Positions 1-10,902 of a stretch of 10,902 nucleotides of DNA are shown here, piece after piece. The stretch lies in the IMG/VR virus record IMGVR_UViG_2531839668_000016; one strand, 5' to 3'. The DNA is from a virus (lineage: Duplodnaviria > Heunggongvirae > Uroviricota > Caudoviricetes). Position numbers and translations under genes: made by a program. Below the pieces are notes generated by a model, which saw only the letters and a program-made list of their open reading frames with translations, was not told where the DNA came from and made no database searches. The number at the start of each line of letters is the position of its first letter. Position 1 is the stretch's first letter.

Positions 1-405
1 ATGGATCAGGTCGTTGTTTTTCAAAAGATGTTTGAGCAAGTGAGAAAAGAGCAAAACTTCTCCTGGTTTTATTCAGAATTAAAACATCACCGTATTGCAC
101 ATTACATTTATTATCTGGCTACGGATAACATCAGAATTATTACTCACGATGATACGGTTTTGTTATTAAGAGGAACCAGGAACCTGTTAAAAGTTAGTAC
201 GACCAAGAACCCTGCTAAAATAAAAGAGGCCGCATTGCTTCATATTTGCGGAAAATCTACATTTCGGGAATACTGTTCAACACTGGCAGGCGCGGGCGTT
301 TTCCGGTGGGTTACTGATGTTAATCATAACAAACGCAGTTACTACGCCATTGATAATACGCTTTTATATATTGAAGATGTAGAAAATAATAAACCATTAA
401 TCTAG
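1..405 (+). CDS. ycgX: YcgX-like DUF1398-family protein (chromosomal flank)
   Basis: Complete 134 aa ORF starting at window position 1. Sequence and length match my recollection of E. coli YcgX, and its position next to iraM and the icd fragment matches the K-12 order icdC-iraM-ycgX. Not verified by search. Confidence 0.55.
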   Translation: MDQVVVFQKMFEQVRKEQNFSWFYSELKHHRIAHYIYYLATDNIRIITHDDTVLLLRGTRNLLKVSTTKNPAKIKEAALLHICGKSTFREYCSTLAGAGVFRWVTDVNHNKRSYYAIDNTLLYIEDVENNKPLI

Positions 406-1036: not shown

Positions 1037-1105
1037 ATGCAAAATCAAGAAATAAACATCCTAATGAACCATATTAAATACCGTGGGATAAGACATAACA
1101 AATGA
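1037..1105 (+). CDS. 22-codon upstream ORF ([22 protein letters not shown]) whose stop overlaps the iraM start (ATGA)
   Basis: ATG at 1037 preceded by a GAGGGGGG purine-rich stretch. The TGA at 1103-1105 overlaps the iraM ATG at 1102-1104. Candidate leader peptide only. Confidence 0.3.
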
Positions 1106-1425
1106 AGTGGATAGTAATTGACACGGTAATTCAACCTACATGTGGTATATCTTTTTCAGCCATATGGGGTAATATGAAAATGATCATCTGGTATCAATCT
1201 ACTATATTTCTCCCTCCTGGCAGTATATTTACACCGGTTAAGTCTGGTATTATCCTTAAGGATAAAGAATATCCTATTACTATTTATCACATCGCACCAT
1301 TCAACAAGGATTTATGGAGTTTACTCAAAAGCAGTCAAGAGTGTCCTCCAGGAGAAAGCAAAATAACAAATAAATGTTTACATAATAGTTGCATTATAAA
1401 AATATGCCCATATGGGCTCAAGTAA
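1102..1425 (+). CDS. iraM: IraM anti-adaptor protein (RssB inhibitor, RpoS stabiliser)
   Basis: 107 aa ORF. Sequence matches my recollection of E. coli IraM ([18 protein letters not shown]...), and the position immediately next to the icd 3' pseudo-fragment matches K-12 synteny. Confidence 0.65.
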
Positions 1426-1481
1426 TGGGCTTCATATAAATATGCTCGATATGCTATTAATAATATCCACATAAATAAAAC

Positions 1482-1504
1482 AACGGGCGTGTTATACGCC
1501 CGTT
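1482..1504 (-). terminator. Rho-independent terminator of icd (perfect 9-bp stem AACGGGCGT / ACGCCCGTT, 5-nt loop), possibly bidirectional for iraM
   Basis: Perfect inverted repeat seen directly. On the minus strand it is followed by GTTTTATTTATG. It lies 24 bp downstream of the icd-fragment stop codon, between the convergent iraM and icd fragment. Confidence 0.5.
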
Positions 1505-1527
1505 TCAATATTTAACACATGGAGAGA

Positions 1528-1692
1528 TTACATGTTTTCGATGATCGCTTCACCAAACTCTGAACATTTCAGCAGCTTAGCGCCTTCCATCAGACGTTCG
1601 AAGTCATAAGTTACGGTCTTGGCATTGATTGCGCCTTCCATACCTTTAACAATCAGGTCAGCCGCTTCAGTCCAACCCATATGGCGCAGCAG
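1528..1692 (-). pseudogene. icd: 3' fragment of isocitrate dehydrogenase gene (icdC-like); att core duplication of an icd-integrating prophage
   Basis: Minus-strand translation reads [54 protein letters not shown], which is the Icd C-terminus. There is no upstream coding continuation, and homology ends near 1692. Confidence 0.85.
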
Positions 1693-1882
1693 TATATAAA
1701 AACCATGAATTCAAGTCATTGATATTTAACGATAAAAATTATTTTATTGTCTTTTTATTAGCCAAAATAAACTTTATTCAACCGTTTGATTTCATTGACG
1801 TTCGTTTTTATTTTGGGGAAAGGTTTTCTCTACCATTTATATCCAAATTACAAGTCTACATTTTATTAACATCTCAATACAT

Positions 1883-2427: not shown

Positions 2428-3513
2428 CTATTGCCAGCAATTGTTTTTAATTGCTTTAGCATCTACCGTCATATCTACTGTAGCAAAATGGATCTTATGT
2501 CCCTGAGTGACAACATACTCATTAAGCATATAGCCAACAGCTGGATGAAGTAGAAGACCAGCGGCATTGAGCGAAAGCGGATCCGTCTTGTTCTCCTGTG
2601 TTCTAAGGTAGGTATATAGCTGATAAATATAGCCATTACGTAGTGATTGCTCCCGATGCCAACCCTTTGTCAGAATCGAATTAAATTTGGTATCGATAAT
2701 AATACGCCGCTGGGCAGTCTTGTGTTCCAGAATAATGTCTGACTTCATTGTCGGGAAAATCTCTGCACTACCTGCACTTTGATCGCTCAACGCCCATTTC
2801 AGCTCTTTCCCTGCAGAGACCTGCCAAGTTGTTTTGGCAAGGTGTACACGATATAAGCCAGCGATACCTTTTTCAAATAGTCTTCTCATCCAGTAAAGGT
2901 TATTTGAGGGCGCAGGTAAAAGATATTGGCCTTGATCTTCGGTCGGCATCAGCAGTTCAAAAGCTAATCGTGCGGCATCGACCATCGGTTTATCTGCGGC
3001 ATCATGGCGTCCAAAACGCCACACTGAGGGTAATTCGCGGGGGGCAGGATATCCTCCATTTATCCCCTCACGGCGAAGTGATATTGCCATAAAATGGCAA
3101 TCTGCCGCCAAAGACGGTTTCACTATGATTGAGGCCAGACGTTCTAACGCACAGCGAACATAGCGATTTCGGGGGGTGTTGAGGGTTATGTCTTGAAAAT
3201 GGCAGGCAACCTGTCCCCGTTCCAGCAGTTGATGACTGGCAGTATACAGTATGTCAATGCGCCCTCTCACCCGGTTCAGGGCCGCATGACAAGTTTGGTA
3301 TCCCATATTTAAATTGCGACGTCGGCGCAGCGTAATCTCATGAAGGAGGATTGTCGCCACCAGGTCGGGGATTTCTGCTGGGTTATCTTCTACTGCGATC
3401 TGATTGCGCCCTAACTGGCGAAACAGATCTGAAGCGTACAGCATCAGCATCCAGATATTTCGCATGGGAATACGTGATGCTGTATGTTGCTCACTCCCGG
3501 TTATTGTCGTCAT
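2428..3513 (-). CDS. McrC-like nuclease subunit of a McrBC-type (type IV, modification-dependent) restriction system
   Basis: 361 aa. Its ATG overlaps the stop of the upstream McrB-like gene (ATGA at 3510-3513). Size is similar to McrC (348 aa), and the C-terminal region has a PD-(D/E)xK-like stretch (DIILEHK...IIIDTKF). Confidence 0.65.
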   Translation of the reverse strand: MTTITGSEQHTASRIPMRNIWMLMLYASDLFRQLGRNQIAVEDNPAEIPDLVATILLHEITLRRRRNLNMGYQTCHAALNRVRGRIDILYTASHQLLERGQVACHFQDITLNTPRNRYVRCALERLASIIVKPSLAADCHFMAISLRREGINGGYPAPRELPSVWRFGRHDAADKPMVDAARLAFELLMPTEDQGQYLLPAPSNNLYWMRRLFEKGIAGLYRVHLAKTTWQVSAGKELKWALSDQSAGSAEIFPTMKSDIILEHKTAQRRIIIDTKFNSILTKGWHREQSLRNGYIYQLYTYLRTQENKTDPLSLNAAGLLLHPAVGYMLNEYVVTQGHKIHFATVDMTVDAKAIKNNCWQ

Positions 3514-5492
3514 TTTGCTAATAACACTTTTCTGGCTTCATCGACTTTATTTGGAGCATCGAACCAATATTCGGCGAGCAAAGGGCAGATCTCTGTATCA
3601 ACGACTTGTTCATACCAAGCCTGGGCATCGTTGATTTTTTGGCCGATAGCTGGGGTGACATAGCTGTGACCGATACAAAACTGTGGTCCTAAGGTAACAT
3701 CTTTTGCCAGCATATCGTTTAATACCGTCAGTCGAGATTTGATGAATGCTAACATGTCAAAATCAATTGCGTAATTATAATTTACCCAGTTTCTCCACGC
3801 GTCATTAAAAGCTGGCTTTAGATCGATAAACGCGAAACGACGGCGCAGCGCTAGGTCAAGTAGTGCGAGTGAGCGGTCTGCAATATTCATCGTACCGATG
3901 ATATATAGATTCTCAGGAATGTATATTTTTTCATCAGCATTTTTAGGATAGGAAAGAGATAATGCCTCAGTCGGCGTGCGTTTATCTGCTTCCATCAACG
4001 TGAGTGTTTCACCGAAGATTTGCGCCGGATTGCCACGATTAATCTCTTCAATTATCACCACATATTTCGAGGTAGGATTATTGACTGCAGTTTTGATTGC
4101 ATTTACAAAAGGTCCATCAATTAGCGTCAATTGCCCTTCTTTACCTGGACGCCAGCCTCGAATAAAGTCTTCGTAAGAGAGGTTCGGGTGAAATTGCACC
4201 GCGCTAATACGCTCAGGTGCTTTTTCTCCCATCAAGCAGTACGCCAGACGTCGCGCTAACCAAGTTTTTCCAGTTCCGGGTGGTCCTTGTAATATCAGGT
4301 TTTTCTTGTCGATCAGGCGCTGAAGTGTGAGTTGGATCTTAGCCTCTTCCAAGAAACAGCCATCCTGCACCAGATGACTGATGTCATAAGGAACGTGGGT
4401 GAGTTTTGGCAACAGCGCACTCTCTTCGACAGTTTCCTCAGTTATCGTCTGGGATTCGTTTTTCTCAAAATTCAGGTATTCATAATTTCCGGACTCGAGG
4501 GACTTTAACTCATCATCATTGCATAGTTTCTGTAGATAAAAGTAGATTGAGCTTGTAACAGTTTTGCTCTCAGGATGCTCTACCTTGAATACGTCCAAGT
4601 AGTTTTCTTCCAACTCCGAAGCAGTGAAATAAGGGCCATTTTTTTTCAGGCATAACGCCTTAATTTTATTCAGTAAAGAGGCTTTCCACGTTCTATTTGC
4701 CACCTCATCTTTAGACTGGCTAAGATCTGTATTCCACGCTGATAAGGAAAGTTCTGGGAAAGAATGAACCGGATAGTTTGGTTGGGTAAAGACCTCGTTC
4801 AGCGCCCGCATAAGACTCAGGTAACTTTGTCCACTACAGCGACCTTTTGCCCCGTTTTTAATGATCTTAATGTTTAACACTGTCTGAATGTAATACTGCG
4901 ACTGGCTATCTAAAGTGGGGTAGAACCAAGGACGGGTCCAGTACAACCCCATGGTGAGATTCCAACCGACATTCATTACTGTAGAAGCGATGTCATATGC
5001 GGCAGTGAAGTCTGCAGAGTTAGTATTCTGGTTATCCGCAAAGATCATTGCCTGTGAGAACATTTCCCACAAGCATTCAATGTCATTAGGGTCGCGTGAC
5101 TTTTCATAACCAAAGAACCAAGATTTTTGGTTATTCAACAGAGGGATTCCGGCAAAGGAGTCAGGAATCGGTTCGTTCACGCCCAACAAATTCGCTAGCT
5201 TGGCAGCAATAATTTTGCGATTGCTGTCGGTCAAGTTACGATTGAACAAGCCCATAGTAGTAAACGGACAAATGTCTTTTAAGGGAAAGATCTCTCCCAT
5301 AATAGATTTGTCCTGCAGATGGGACATTCCTTCCACACCCGAGGCAATTAGATGAATACCTTTGACTAATTCATCTCTACGATTTCGCCAAGTCAGTAAC
5401 GCGTTGGCAAAAGCCTCATAAAAACTAGCCCAAGCAAACTTGCCATCATGTTCTGCTGTATCCACGGGAACTCCATTATACTTGTTGAGCAA
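3510..5492 (-). CDS. McrB-family AAA+ GTPase with a large uncharacterised N-terminal domain (~390 aa)
   Basis: Walker A GPPGTGKT at aa 403-410 (nt 4263-4286). VVIIEEINRGN...FGETLTLMEADKR and the IIGTMNIADRSLALLDLALRRRFAFIDL block closely parallel E. coli McrB (FIIDEINRAN..., MNTADRSLAVVDYALRRRF). The N-terminal 390 aa are unrelated to the E. coli McrB DNA-binding domain. The annotated start is TTG; an in-frame GTG 9 codons downstream has a better SD. Confidence 0.8.
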   Translation of the reverse strand: MLNKYNGVPVDTAEHDGKFAWASFYEAFANALLTWRNRRDELVKGIHLIASGVEGMSHLQDKSIMGEIFPLKDICPFTTMGLFNRNLTDSNRKIIAAKLANLLGVNEPIPDSFAGIPLLNNQKSWFFGYEKSRDPNDIECLWEMFSQAMIFADNQNTNSADFTAAYDIASTVMNVGWNLTMGLYWTRPWFYPTLDSQSQYYIQTVLNIKIIKNGAKGRCSGQSYLSLMRALNEVFTQPNYPVHSFPELSLSAWNTDLSQSKDEVANRTWKASLLNKIKALCLKKNGPYFTASELEENYLDVFKVEHPESKTVTSSIYFYLQKLCNDDELKSLESGNYEYLNFEKNESQTITEETVEESALLPKLTHVPYDISHLVQDGCFLEEAKIQLTLQRLIDKKNLILQGPPGTGKTWLARRLAYCLMGEKAPERISAVQFHPNLSYEDFIRGWRPGKEGQLTLIDGPFVNAIKTAVNNPTSKYVVIIEEINRGNPAQIFGETLTLMEADKRTPTEALSLSYPKNADEKIYIPENLYIIGTMNIADRSLALLDLALRRRFAFIDLKPAFNDAWRNWVNYNYAIDFDMLAFIKSRLTVLNDMLAKDVTLGPQFCIGHSYVTPAIGQKINDAQAWYEQVVDTEICPLLAEYWFDAPNKVDEARKVLLAK

Positions 5493-5825: not shown

Positions 5826-6409
5826 TTATTCCATAACAGGGATTGCAGGCCACTCAATATCAGGTGCAGTTGATGTATCAACACGATTCAGCAACACCCG
5901 ATACTTCTTCCAGGCTTCAAGCAACGAGGTTTCTTCCTCCGTTGCGATTTCCAGATCTGCAGCATCCTGAAGCGGGGCAATATGCTCACTGGCTACCTGC
6001 ATCAGGCTGTTTTTGTTTCTTCCGCCTCCCGGATCCGGAACAGTTTTTCTGCTTCCGTATCCTTCACCCAGGCTGTGCCGTTCCACTTCTGAAACTCCCC
6101 TTCCGGGGATAACCAGGTGATATTTTCCGGTAGAGGTCCGAGTTCAGAAATAAATAACGAGTCGCCGGAAGCCACGTCATAGACGGTTTTTCCCCGATGA
6201 TCTTCAACGAGATGCCACGATGCCTCATCACTGTTGAAAACAGCCACGAAGCCTACCGGAATATCTGGCGGTGCAATATAGGTACTGTTTGCTGGCAGAC
6301 CTGTATGAGGCGGAATATATGCGTCACCTTCACCAATAAATTCATTAGTTCCGGCCAGCAGATTATAAATTTTTATGGTCCGTGGTTGTTCACTCATTCT
6401 GAATGCCAT
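5826..6409 (-). pseudogene. tfa: Tail fibre assembly protein (Tfa, lambda/e14 TfaE-like), frameshifted
   Basis: Two overlapping ORFs in different frames (6002-6409 and 5826-6086) together give [15 protein letters not shown]...REAEETK / [22 protein letters not shown]...[10 protein letters not shown], i.e. a full Tfa. The frame break is in an A-run at 6008-6017. Confidence 0.8.
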
Positions 6410-7519: not shown

Positions 7520-7674
7520 CGCATCCTCACGATAATATCCGGGTAGGCGCGATCACTTTCGTCTACTCCATTACAAAGCGAGGCTGGGTATTTCCCGGCC
7601 TTTCTGTTATCAGAAATCCACTGAAAGCACAGCGGCTGGCTGAGAAGATAAATAACAAACAGGAGGATATATGA
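7516..7674 (+). CDS. Small ORF (52 aa, [52 protein letters not shown]), coupled on both sides
   Basis: Its ATG overlaps the exo stop (ATGA at 7516-7519), and its TGA overlaps the ATG of the DGQHR gene (ATGA at 7671-7674). Positionally it corresponds to the small orfs following exo in lambda. Confidence 0.5.
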
Positions 7675-8735
7675 GTCAGGTTGGTAATCATTCATTCGAA
7701 TTTCCGGCATCGCAAGGTGTACAGGGTGGTACTGTTACACTCTTCCTTACCATACCAGGAAGATCGCTGGCTCGTTTCCTCGCTTCAGATAATTACGGCC
7801 ATACACTGGAACGCTCTCAGCGAGAAATTAATCCAAATCGAGTACGAAAATTTTTAAATTATCTCACTAACGCAGACTCAAGAAATGAGCCTTTTATCAT
7901 TCCCCCTCTCGTAGGTAACTGTGATTCGAATATAGAATTTGTACCGTTTGGCAACACAAATGTTGGTATAGCCAGAATTCCCCTCGACGCCGAAATAAAA
8001 CTTTTTGATGGTCAACATCGTGCAGCTGGCATTGAGATATTTTGCCGAAGTTCCCCATCAACGCTCATGGTTCCCATGATGCTTACAATGAATCTGCCGC
8101 TAAAAACCCGGCAGCAGTTCTTTTCGGACATAAATAACAACGTTTCTAAGCCATCAGCGACCATCAATATGGCGTATAACGGCCGGGATGATATTGCTCA
8201 GGGAATGATATCCTTCCTGACCCAACATACTGTATTTGCCGATATAACCGATTTTGAACACAACGTAGTGCCATTAAAAAGTAATATGTGGGTGAGTTTC
8301 AAGGCACTCACTGATGCAACGTCAAAGTTCGCTAGGAACGGCAATCAACAACTTGAAATGGGATATATAGAATCTGTCTGGGAGGCATGGATTACACTAA
8401 CTCAGATTGACTCAATCCGACATGGTGTACACCACGCTACGTACAAGCGCGATTATATTCAGTTCCATGGAGTAATGATTAACGCTTTCGGTTTTGCGGT
8501 TCAACAGATGATGGTTAATCATTCCATCGCAGAAATAACTTCTATGATCGAAAAACTATGTGCAACTACCAGCTCTGCAGAAAGAGAGGATTTTTTTCTG
8601 ATGGATAACTGGGCGGGGATCTGCACGAAAGCCAGCCAGGAAAAACTATCTGTTATTGCCAATGTGGCAGCGCAGAAAGCAGCAGCAAACAGACTGATAC
8701 AAGCTTTTACCAAAGGAAGTCTGGAAACAACTTAA
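7671..8735 (+). CDS. DGQHR-domain protein (DndB-like, ParB/Srx-like fold)
   Basis: 354 aa with an exact DGQHR motif (KLFDGQHRAAGIE, aa 113-117, nt 8007-8021). SD CAGGAGGA lies upstream, and the gene is translationally coupled to the preceding small ORF. Confidence 0.75.
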   Translation: MSQVGNHSFEFPASQGVQGGTVTLFLTIPGRSLARFLASDNYGHTLERSQREINPNRVRKFLNYLTNADSRNEPFIIPPLVGNCDSNIEFVPFGNTNVGIARIPLDAEIKLFDGQHRAAGIEIFCRSSPSTLMVPMMLTMNLPLKTRQQFFSDINNNVSKPSATINMAYNGRDDIAQGMISFLTQHTVFADITDFEHNVVPLKSNMWVSFKALTDATSKFARNGNQQLEMGYIESVWEAWITLTQIDSIRHGVHHATYKRDYIQFHGVMINAFGFAVQQMMVNHSIAEITSMIEKLCATTSSAEREDFFLMDNWAGICTKASQEKLSVIANVAAQKAAANRLIQAFTKGSLETT

Positions 8736-9533: not shown

Positions 9534-9770
9534 ATGTCTCGACTAATCACTTTACAGGACTGGGCTAAAGAAGAATTTGGGGACTTAGCACCAAGTGAGC
9601 GAGTTCTGAAAAAATACGCGCAAGGGAAAATGATGGCCCCACCCGCTATAAAAGTTGGTCGCTACTGGATGATTGACCGAAATTCCCGTTTTGTAGGAAC
9701 GCTTGCAGAACCGCAACTCCCAATAAACGCAAACCCAAAACTCCAACGGATAATCGCTGATGGCTGCTAG
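9534..9770 (+). CDS. xis: Excisionase (Xis-like recombination directionality factor)
   Basis: 78 aa with strong SD AAGAGGAGGA. It sits immediately upstream of int and overlaps it by 11 nt. The N-terminal LITLQDWA...PPAIKVGRYW resembles lambda Xis (YLTLQEW...PPPVKDGREY). Confidence 0.65.
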   Translation: MSRLITLQDWAKEEFGDLAPSERVLKKYAQGKMMAPPAIKVGRYWMIDRNSRFVGTLAEPQLPINANPKLQRIIADGC

Positions 9771-10902
9771 ACCCCGATCTCACAAAATCTCTATACCCAA
9801 TTTATATTGCAAATTAGATAAGCGAACCGGAAAGGTATATTGGCAATACAAACATCCACTATCCGGTCGTTTTCATAGCTTAGGAACTGATGAGAATGAA
9901 GCAAAACAAGTTGCTACTGAAGCAAATACCATTATTGCTGAACAACGTACCAGACAAATATTAAGCGTCAATGAGCGTCTGGAAAGAATGAAAGGCAGGC
10001 GCTCAGACATTACGGTGACAGAATGGCTTGATAAATATATTTCTATCCAGGAGGACAGGCTGCAACATAATGAACTAAGACCCAACTCCTATCGGCAAAA
10101 AGGCAAACCCATTCGTCTTTTCCGTGAGCATTGTGGAATGCAACACCTCAAGGATATTACCGCACTTGATATTGCCGAAATAATTGATGCTGTAAAGGCT
10201 GAAGGTCATAACAGGATGGCGCAAGTCGTGAGAATGGTGTTGATCGACGTCTTCAAAGAAGCACAACACGCAGGACATGTTCCGCCAGGATTTAACCCTG
10301 CGCAGGCAACAAAACAACCGCGAAATCGAGTAAACCGCCAAAGATTGTCACTGCTCGAATGGCAGGCAATATTTGAAAGCGTAAGCAGACGGCAGCCCTA
10401 TTTAAAATGCGGCATGCTACTTGCTCTTGTTACTGGACAACGTTTAGGCGATATCTGCAATTTGAAATTCTCTGATATATGGGACGACATGTTGCACATT
10501 ACTCAGGAAAAAACCGGTTCAAAACTTGCTATTCCGCTTAACCTGAAATGCGATGCTCTGAATATTACCCTTCGTGAAGTTATATCTCAGTGCAGGGATG
10601 CTGTTGTTAGTAAATATCTGGTCCATTACCGTCACACTACCTCTCAAGCAAACAGAGGAGACCAGGTTTCTGCAAATACTCTGACAACGGCTTTTAAAAA
10701 GGCCCGGGAAAAATGTGGCATAAAATGGGAGCAAGGAACTGCGCCCACATTTCATGAGCAGCGATCTCTCTCAGAACGGTTATATCGGGAACAGGGTCTG
10801 GATACGCAAAAGTTGTTAGGCCATAAATCCAGAAAAATGACCGACCGATACAATGATGATCGTGGTAAAGACTGGATTATCGTAGATATCAAAACAGCAT
10901 AG
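9760..10902 (+). CDS. int: Lambda-family tyrosine integrase
   Basis: 380 aa. N-terminus MAARPRSHKISIPNLY resembles lambda Int MGRRRSHERRDLPPNLY. C-terminal catalytic region has GQRLGD, HEQRSLSERLY, LGHKS and RYNDDRGKDW, paralleling lambda HELRSLSARLY...LGHKS...YRDDRGREW. Confidence 0.9.
   Translation: MAARPRSHKISIPNLYCKLDKRTGKVYWQYKHPLSGRFHSLGTDENEAKQVATEANTIIAEQRTRQILSVNERLERMKGRRSDITVTEWLDKYISIQEDRLQHNELRPNSYRQKGKPIRLFREHCGMQHLKDITALDIAEIIDAVKAEGHNRMAQVVRMVLIDVFKEAQHAGHVPPGFNPAQATKQPRNRVNRQRLSLLEWQAIFESVSRRQPYLKCGMLLALVTGQRLGDICNLKFSDIWDDMLHITQEKTGSKLAIPLNLKCDALNITLREVISQCRDAVVSKYLVHYRHTTSQANRGDQVSANTLTTAFKKAREKCGIKWEQGTAPTFHEQRSLSERLYREQGLDTQKLLGHKSRKMTDRYNDDRGKDWIIVDIKTA

Follow-up and report, generated by a model that had tools for sequence, protein, structure and literature searches.

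Integration at icd

The bacteriophage 21 is known to integrate at icd (Campbell et al. 1992, as cited in PMC4129442; GenBank M61865 and OL657228). The element e14 uses the same gene, and in both cases 165 bp of icd are replaced (PMC4129442, PMC6379469, PMC12803456). The icd/icdC duplication associated with e14 in K-12 goes back to Hill, Gray and Brody (1989, as cited in PMC6379469 and PMC2973815), and the distinction between D398/D410 in K-12 and E398/E410 is likewise attributed to Hill 1989 (also PMC6379469).

The window analysed here, that is, the whole stretch of 10,902 nucleotides, is a piece of Escherichia coli chromosome. Strain STECUZB006 matches all of it at 100.0% (10,906 bases there versus 10,902 in the window), and partial matches are present in 5,426 of 5,426 complete E. 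coli genomes. From left to right, the window contains ycgX, ymgL/ymgK, iraM, a terminator, an icd fragment on the minus strand, and phage-derived genes; its last position is that of the int stop codon. Its main features are:

1-405, plus strand: ycgX
Between ycgX and iraM: the small genes ymgL and ymgK
1102-1425, plus strand: iraM
1477-1519, minus strand: native icd intrinsic terminator (terminator scan, fold and inverted repeat)
1528-1691, minus strand: orphan native icd 3' end, an icdC-type pseudogene (translation, identity to K-12 icdC, and contiguity with an intact icd in unoccupied genomes)
Phage-derived run, in this order: McrC homologue, McrB-like AAA ATPase, tail-fibre-assembly remnant, O/P remnants, YqaJ-type exonuclease, DndB/DGQHR protein, TraR, DUF4222, xis and int

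Positions 1528-1946 represent, with very high confidence, the attR of a defective lambdoid prophage (P-core-B' in the nomenclature of lambda), about 9.2 kb long and carrying the integration module of phage 21; none of the observations contradicts this. The int-proximal junction, which lies outside the window, is attL by lambda convention. A sequence-only reading of this DNA had placed a phage/chromosome junction within icd, which is confirmed, correct and already known as an integration site; that reading had assigned the event to the e14 type, and this assignment has to be replaced.

The orphan icd end and its terminator

The orphan fragment comprises Icd residues 364-416, the stop codon and two further nucleotides (the TG of Met363), amounting to 164 nt and 53 sense codons; in the lambda scheme it forms the B' side and the core of attR. 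Nucleotide identity with icd extends from 1528 (stop codon at 1528-1530) to 1691, the first mismatch being at 1692, and the minus-strand translation of 1528-1710 corresponds to Icd residues 364-416 from LRHMGW to the stop. The sequence-only reading had recognized an icd end but left its strand, the minus strand, unstated, and gave its length as 55 codons; since 164 nt were measured, that figure is the usual 165-nt count for icdC. Positions 1440-1691 are identical (252/252) to K-12 icdC and the DNA downstream of it, and PGAP calls the orphan a partial isocitrate dehydrogenase pseudogene. Its end reads ...RLMEGAK...FGEAIIENM, with Glu at positions 398 and 410.

The native icd terminator follows immediately, as had been proposed. 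It consists of a 9-bp stem with 6 G-C pairs, running from 1504 to 1482 on the minus strand, followed by the T-run GTTTTATTTA, and its fold has an energy of -23.3 kcal/mol (z = -4.35). This terminator is probably bidirectional because it is placed between the convergent genes iraM and icd. On the other side of the fragment, the codons YI had been taken to mark the end of homology, and this is the case: the DNA there is not icd and is also found in the attP of free phage 21, whose translation carries YI too, so these codons are phage P-arm sequence.

The orphan might still be expressed, either as a 50-aa peptide (minus-strand ATG at 1680) or as a functional RNA in its own right, but we regard this as highly improbable. 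An ATG-initiated ORF does occupy 1528-1680 of the minus strand, and a weak promoter-like match (9/12) is present at 1719-1691 of the same strand, with the native terminator following. However, promoter-like matches in this region occur at chance level (6 found versus 5.6 expected), the sequence is the unaltered native icd allele, whose conservation needs no extra function, and both PGAP and the K-12 annotators call it a pseudogene. The Rfam search returned no RNA family (C0293/co293 and others) at the junction, its only match being IS009 at 5869-6066. The svsR sRNA of prophages at the phage 21 site has been reported at the 3' end of cI (PMC12803456), a gene that has been lost from the remnant prophage of the window.

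The integration module

The features that define the type of integration are the following:

1692-1946, no strand: P arm of a phage-21-type attP, forming the prophage side of attR (alignments with free 21-like phages)
1811-1822, minus strand: Int arm-type binding dodecamer CTTTCCCCAAAA (consensus YYTTCCCCAAAA), the only exact match in the window
9534-9770, plus strand: xis, excisionase (Pfam Exc PF07825; PGAP excisionase)
9760-10902, plus strand: int, phage-21-type tyrosine integrase, 380 aa, full length (identity to phage 21 Int; Pfam)

The integrase is identical to that of phage 21 at 379 of 380 residues over its full length, versus 60% identity to IntE of e14. It combines an N-terminal arm DNA-binding domain (PF09003, E = 1.8e-28, residues 1-71) with a C-terminal tyrosine recombinase domain (PF00589, E = 1.5e-23), as integrases of the lambda family do. 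The xis-int-attL DNA of the near-identical genome L002 (15538-17200) is 98.7% identical to phage 21, and the identities of this region to phage 21, ev207, 4A7 and other free lambdoid phages range from 98.5 to 99.0%.

The prophage side of attR tells the same story. Uninterrupted alignments of the segment from 1528 to 1932 or 1946 were obtained with 28 phage records; for phage 21, ev207, 4A7 and further phages the identity ranges from 90.6 to 94.3%. In these free phages the icd-like segment joins directly, across 1691/1692, to the DNA seen in the window from 1692 onward. The homology to free 21-like phages ends at about 1932-1946, and cargo foreign to phage 21 lies beyond.

The consensus YYTTCCCCAAAA was taken from the Int arm-type sites annotated in the phage 21 record (L004). 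The dodecamer at 1811-1822 is 120 bp from the core, and its equivalent in phage 21 (L004 3266-3277) is 119 bp past the icd-like segment. Three further dodecamers are situated between int and the phage-borne terminator (L002 16918-16954; phage 21, L004 2881-2917); the number of matches expected by chance is 0.14-0.5. In phage 21 the arm-type sites are thus arranged as 3 + 1 and span 397 bp. Wang et al. are said to have found in 1997 that a minimal attP21 comprises 366-418 bp and that its icd-homologous segment is 209 bp long, sizes that fit the measured span of 397 bp and the homology of about 217 bp between the two icd ends described below.

The P arm also contains a plus-strand ORF, at 1719-1886, that extends over the arm-type Int site, is without a Pfam match and is perhaps no true gene. 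Annotators disagree on small ORFs in this arm: 4A7 has a 55-aa hypothetical protein on the plus strand, whereas the phage 21 record places a "membrane protein" of 51 aa on the opposite one (L004 3329-3484) and also marks matches to CII sites there.

Could the element be e14 itself, or a direct variant of it, with the junction being the e14 attR as in K-12? The two share the attB and the 10-bp core, the orphan is identical to that of K-12, and a methyl-dependent restriction gene lies beside attR in both (mcrA in e14, mcrBC-like genes here). As in e14, the insertion is at the icd core, with the last ~165 nt displaced as icdC. However, neither an IntE-type integrase nor the e14 arm sequences are present here: Int is of the phage 21 type, the DNA past 1692 cannot be aligned with the e14 side of the K-12 attR, and the e14 arms have repeats of the TTTTGATAAC type, not TTTTGGGGAA. 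Moreover, the element-borne icd end does not encode D398 and D410; the copy at attL, seen in L002, has E398, D410 and K414 and a native-like terminator, in contrast to the D398/D410 and the diverged terminator of e14. We therefore grant the e14 reading even less credence than expression of the orphan, and integration of a phage-21-type element is retained.

The second icd copy and the native allele

If the duplication derives from integration, a complete icd is expected beyond int, as the sequence-only reading had predicted. Since the window stops at int, the full gene could be seen only in near-identical genomes, the best of which has a 4-base length difference. In STECUZB006, a complete icd begins 114 bp past the int stop codon. 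Compared with the orphan, this copy has 13 differences in the last 164 coding nucleotides, resulting in E410D and E414K, and the homology between both copies, about 217 bp long in all, includes a native-like terminator and reaches as far as the equivalent of window position 1475 or so. A replacement icd 3' end with its terminator is therefore present at attL, as seen in L002, whose full icd encodes E398, D410 and K414 and ends ...RLMEGAK...FGDAIIKNM. The fragment borne by the phage 21 attP encodes ...FGDAIIKNM as well, matching this full icd.

The statement that K-12 Icd has Asp at two positions where the orphan encodes Glu was accurate (E398/E410 here, D398/D410 in K-12). The end of the K-12 icd comes from e14, and exactly 12 coding positions distinguish it from the orphan, leading to D398 and D410. 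The suggestion that these two positions separate the chromosomal from the phage-borne copy holds in part: position 410 does so (D410 in the phage-borne copy) but position 398 does not, being E in both, and position 414 is a further discriminating site. D398 is specific to the e14-borne copy.

To establish which end is the chromosomal one, the empty site was reconstructed by joining window positions 1300-1691 to the STECUZB006 icd sequence upstream of the core, and then searched for. This reconstructed attB gave a single-piece match of 769/769 in strain 720632 and in several other strains, with one copy per genome. The annotation of strain 720632 shows an intact icd at this site with iraM after it, and the encoded protein has the same end as the orphan, ...RLMEGAK...FGEAIIENM. 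Because genomes with an empty site carry the orphan-type sequence contiguous with an intact icd, the orphan is the native chromosomal icd end.

That the orphan arose instead by a tandem or segmental duplication of the icd end, unrelated to site-specific integration, has a negligible probability. Short duplications do occur at this spot in assemblies, such as a perfect one of 84 bp in K-12 AG100, but here a distance of about 9.2 kb separates the copies, with xis, int and the Int arm sites between them, their 13/164 differences follow the pattern of free-phage attP sites, and an empty site exists. The sequence-only reading had likewise attributed the duplication to integration, which is upheld by the empty site, by the continuity of attP in free phages and by the flanking Xis, Int and arm sites. 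Equally negligible is the reversed assignment, with a phage-borne orphan and a chromosomal 3' end attached to icd: free phages such as 4A7 carry long stretches of the "chromosomal" allele, the alleles not being strictly partitioned, but unoccupied genomes have the orphan-type sequence contiguous with icd and iraM (769/769), the terminator and DNA downstream of the orphan are chromosomal (iraM, ycgX), and Int arm sites and int come after the attL copy, just as they do in free phage 21.

The core and the crossover interval

1682-1691, no strand: strand-exchange interval, plus strand TGGCGCAGCA; 10 bp invariant in eight aligned att sequences

The att core had been located within the icd 3' end and the junction at about 1692, in good agreement with the edge of icd homology found at 1691/1692. 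This edge is the outer limit of the shared core, since attB and attP diverge wholly past 1691. The 10-bp sequence TGGCGCAGCA is invariant in attB, attR, attL, the three attP sites of free phages and both e14 junctions.

The crossover was placed by comparing attL with attR within one genome type. The two junctions differ at position 1681, where the window (attR) shows the chromosomal allele and attL shows G. At the equivalent position, G is also present in the attP of free phage ev207, with A in phages 21 and 4A7. Among the 5,426 genomes, none combines G at this position with 45 nt of the chromosomal type towards the stop codon, the best match being 98.9%. Since G occurs in ev207 and never with a chromosomal-type flank in these genomes, it was read as a phage allele; attL also shares phage 21 alleles 18 and 21 nt further in. 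The difference between attL and attR at 1681 and the divergence past 1691 therefore set the exchange within 1682-1691, inside the boundary of about 1692 given earlier. Judging from these alignments, strand exchange must have been confined to this interval, assuming that the G of attL came with the phage; later mutation or gene conversion could also give G.

Placing the crossover by the identity between attP and attB alone was rejected, as the identical stretch varies from 10 bp in ev207 and 16 bp in phage 21 to more than 38 bp in 4A7.

The icd-like segments of the free 21-type phages (21, ev207 and 4A7) are mosaics of "phage" and "chromosomal" alleles. For instance, that of 4A7 has the chromosomal allele for more than 38 bp beside the core and is phage-like near the stop codon. 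Such mosaics fit repeated exchange between phage-borne and chromosomal copies.

The duplication in K-12 AG100 (NZ_LN832404.1, L008 625-792) is a perfect, in-frame tandem repeat of 84 bp in icd, centred on the att core, in an assembly whose icd is free of e14. Either the recombination site was really rearranged, or the assembly misrepresents a population in which only some cells had excised e14.

Cargo of the element

2428-3513, minus strand: McrC homologue (Pfam McrBC PF10117; PGAP mcrC)
3510-5492, minus strand: McrB-like AAA_5 ATPase, 660 aa (Pfam AAA_5 PF07728; PGAP AAA family ATPase)

The mcrBC-like genes belong to the inserted element and take no part in the att mechanism. The pair lies directly beside attR, where e14 has mcrA. 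In the McrB-like protein, the AAA_5 domain occupies residues 398-553, and the ~380 N-terminal residues have no Pfam match. PADLOC did not recognize the McrC homologue and gave only generic AAA matches for the McrB-like protein. An IS3 element disrupts the McrB-like gene of strain ML35.

A solitary protein with a DndB/DGQHR domain is encoded at 7671-8735 on the plus strand (Pfam E = 3.8e-46; PADLOC DndB), with the exonuclease remnant on one side and traR/xis on the other; the window has no further dnd gene. The Rfam family IS009 has a full-length match at 5869-6066 on the minus strand (207.8 bits versus a gathering score of 117), overlapping the tail-fibre-assembly remnant.

The ymgK-iraM segment

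A second, diverged copy of the icd terminator is located at 616-662, 861 bp from the copy at 1477-1519 and 84% identical to it over 43-47 nt. The two copies bracket an 861-bp segment that contains ymgK and iraM (approximately 617-1477). These 861 bp are precisely what is missing from genomes of the B2 type such as JJ1886 (L009), in which the ycgX/ymgL flank runs directly into the only terminator and the icd end. That this segment is bracketed by terminator copies and absent from B2-type genomes was new to us. The nearest relatives of iraM (62% at the amino acid level) are found in E. albertii-like genomes (L013 and L014), where they adjoin IS1 and IS3 elements and a prophage rusA. Beside the terminator relic at 616-662, no leftover icd coding sequence was detected above shuffled controls (16 versus 16.5 +/- 2.2).

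These observations suggest a separate acquisition of iraM, as a cassette at the icd end. A more far-reaching idea, which we put forward tentatively and consider somewhat less probable than its opposite, is that the downstream neighbourhood of icd is the scar of an older insertion, iraM having been brought in by a former element with the icd end or terminator as its target, of which one cassette is left after decay. PMC4045071 places iraM "on the e14 prophage". As the gene lies outside attR and is present in unoccupied genomes, that placement should be corrected.

Proposed course of integration and its significance

The arrangement can be explained as follows. The attP of a 21-type phage holds a copy of the last ~165 nt of icd together with the icd terminator, and the phage recombined with the chromosome through the short core shared at icd codons 363-366, the staggered cuts of Int presumably falling within or adjoining 1682-1691. 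After integration, the 5' part of the chromosomal icd reads into the 3' end and terminator donated by the phage, which keeps Icd functional; in this case the donated end introduces E410D and E414K. The original chromosomal icd 3' end and its terminator were moved to the far end of the prophage, where they constitute a promoterless orphan beside iraM. With int, xis, the core and the four arm sites all intact, the element may have kept its ability to excise, and its excision would bring back the E398/E410/E414 allele.

The analysis sets the right-hand boundary of the prophage at 1691/1692 and names the element as phage 21-like rather than e14. It also accounts for the ...FGDAIIKNM end of the icd allele of this strain, with little significance beyond annotation. 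One practical consequence is that excision would alter 13 nucleotides and two Icd residues at once, which variant callers would report as a cluster of "mutations", as happens for e14 in K-12. The junction type is common: window positions 1400-1800, an interval that includes the junction, are covered to 80% or more in at least 1,463 of the 5,426 complete E. coli genomes.

Comparison with phage 21, e14 and lambda

Phage 21 and the element have in common the integrase, the xis-int-attL DNA, the 3 + 1 arm dodecamers, the icd end encoding ...FGDAIIKNM, the native-like terminator and the core. However, the element is a remnant of about 9.2 kb that has lost the genes for head, tail, lysis and immunity, and it carries mcrBC-like and DndB-like cargo that phage 21 does not have in the region compared. 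Its P arm is 91.6% identical to that of phage 21 and closer to that of phage 4A7 (94.3%). One base outside the 10-bp core, the attL of the element and phage 21 differ, with G and A, respectively.

With e14, the element shares the attB in icd, a core of 10-11 bp, the orphan sequence and the location of the orphan beside iraM. In both cases the inserted DNA supplies a replacement 3' end and icd stays intact. The differences concern the integrase, with 60% identity between both proteins, the arm sequences and arm-type repeats, and the icd end supplied: the e14-borne copy combines D398/D410 with a diverged terminator, whereas the 21-type copy combines E398/D410/K414 with a native-like one.

Lambda and the element both possess a tyrosine integrase with an N-terminal arm-binding domain (PF09003). 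The layout of the arms is also lambda-like, with three sites in the P' arm, nearest to int, and at least one in the P arm, and so is the gene order, xis being just upstream of int and overlapping it. In contrast to lambda, whose minimal attP is about 240 bp, the element has its target within a protein-coding gene, and its attP carries a replacement of about 210 bp for the gene end that is displaced; it is because of this replacement that the outermost arm sites of phage 21 are 397 bp apart.
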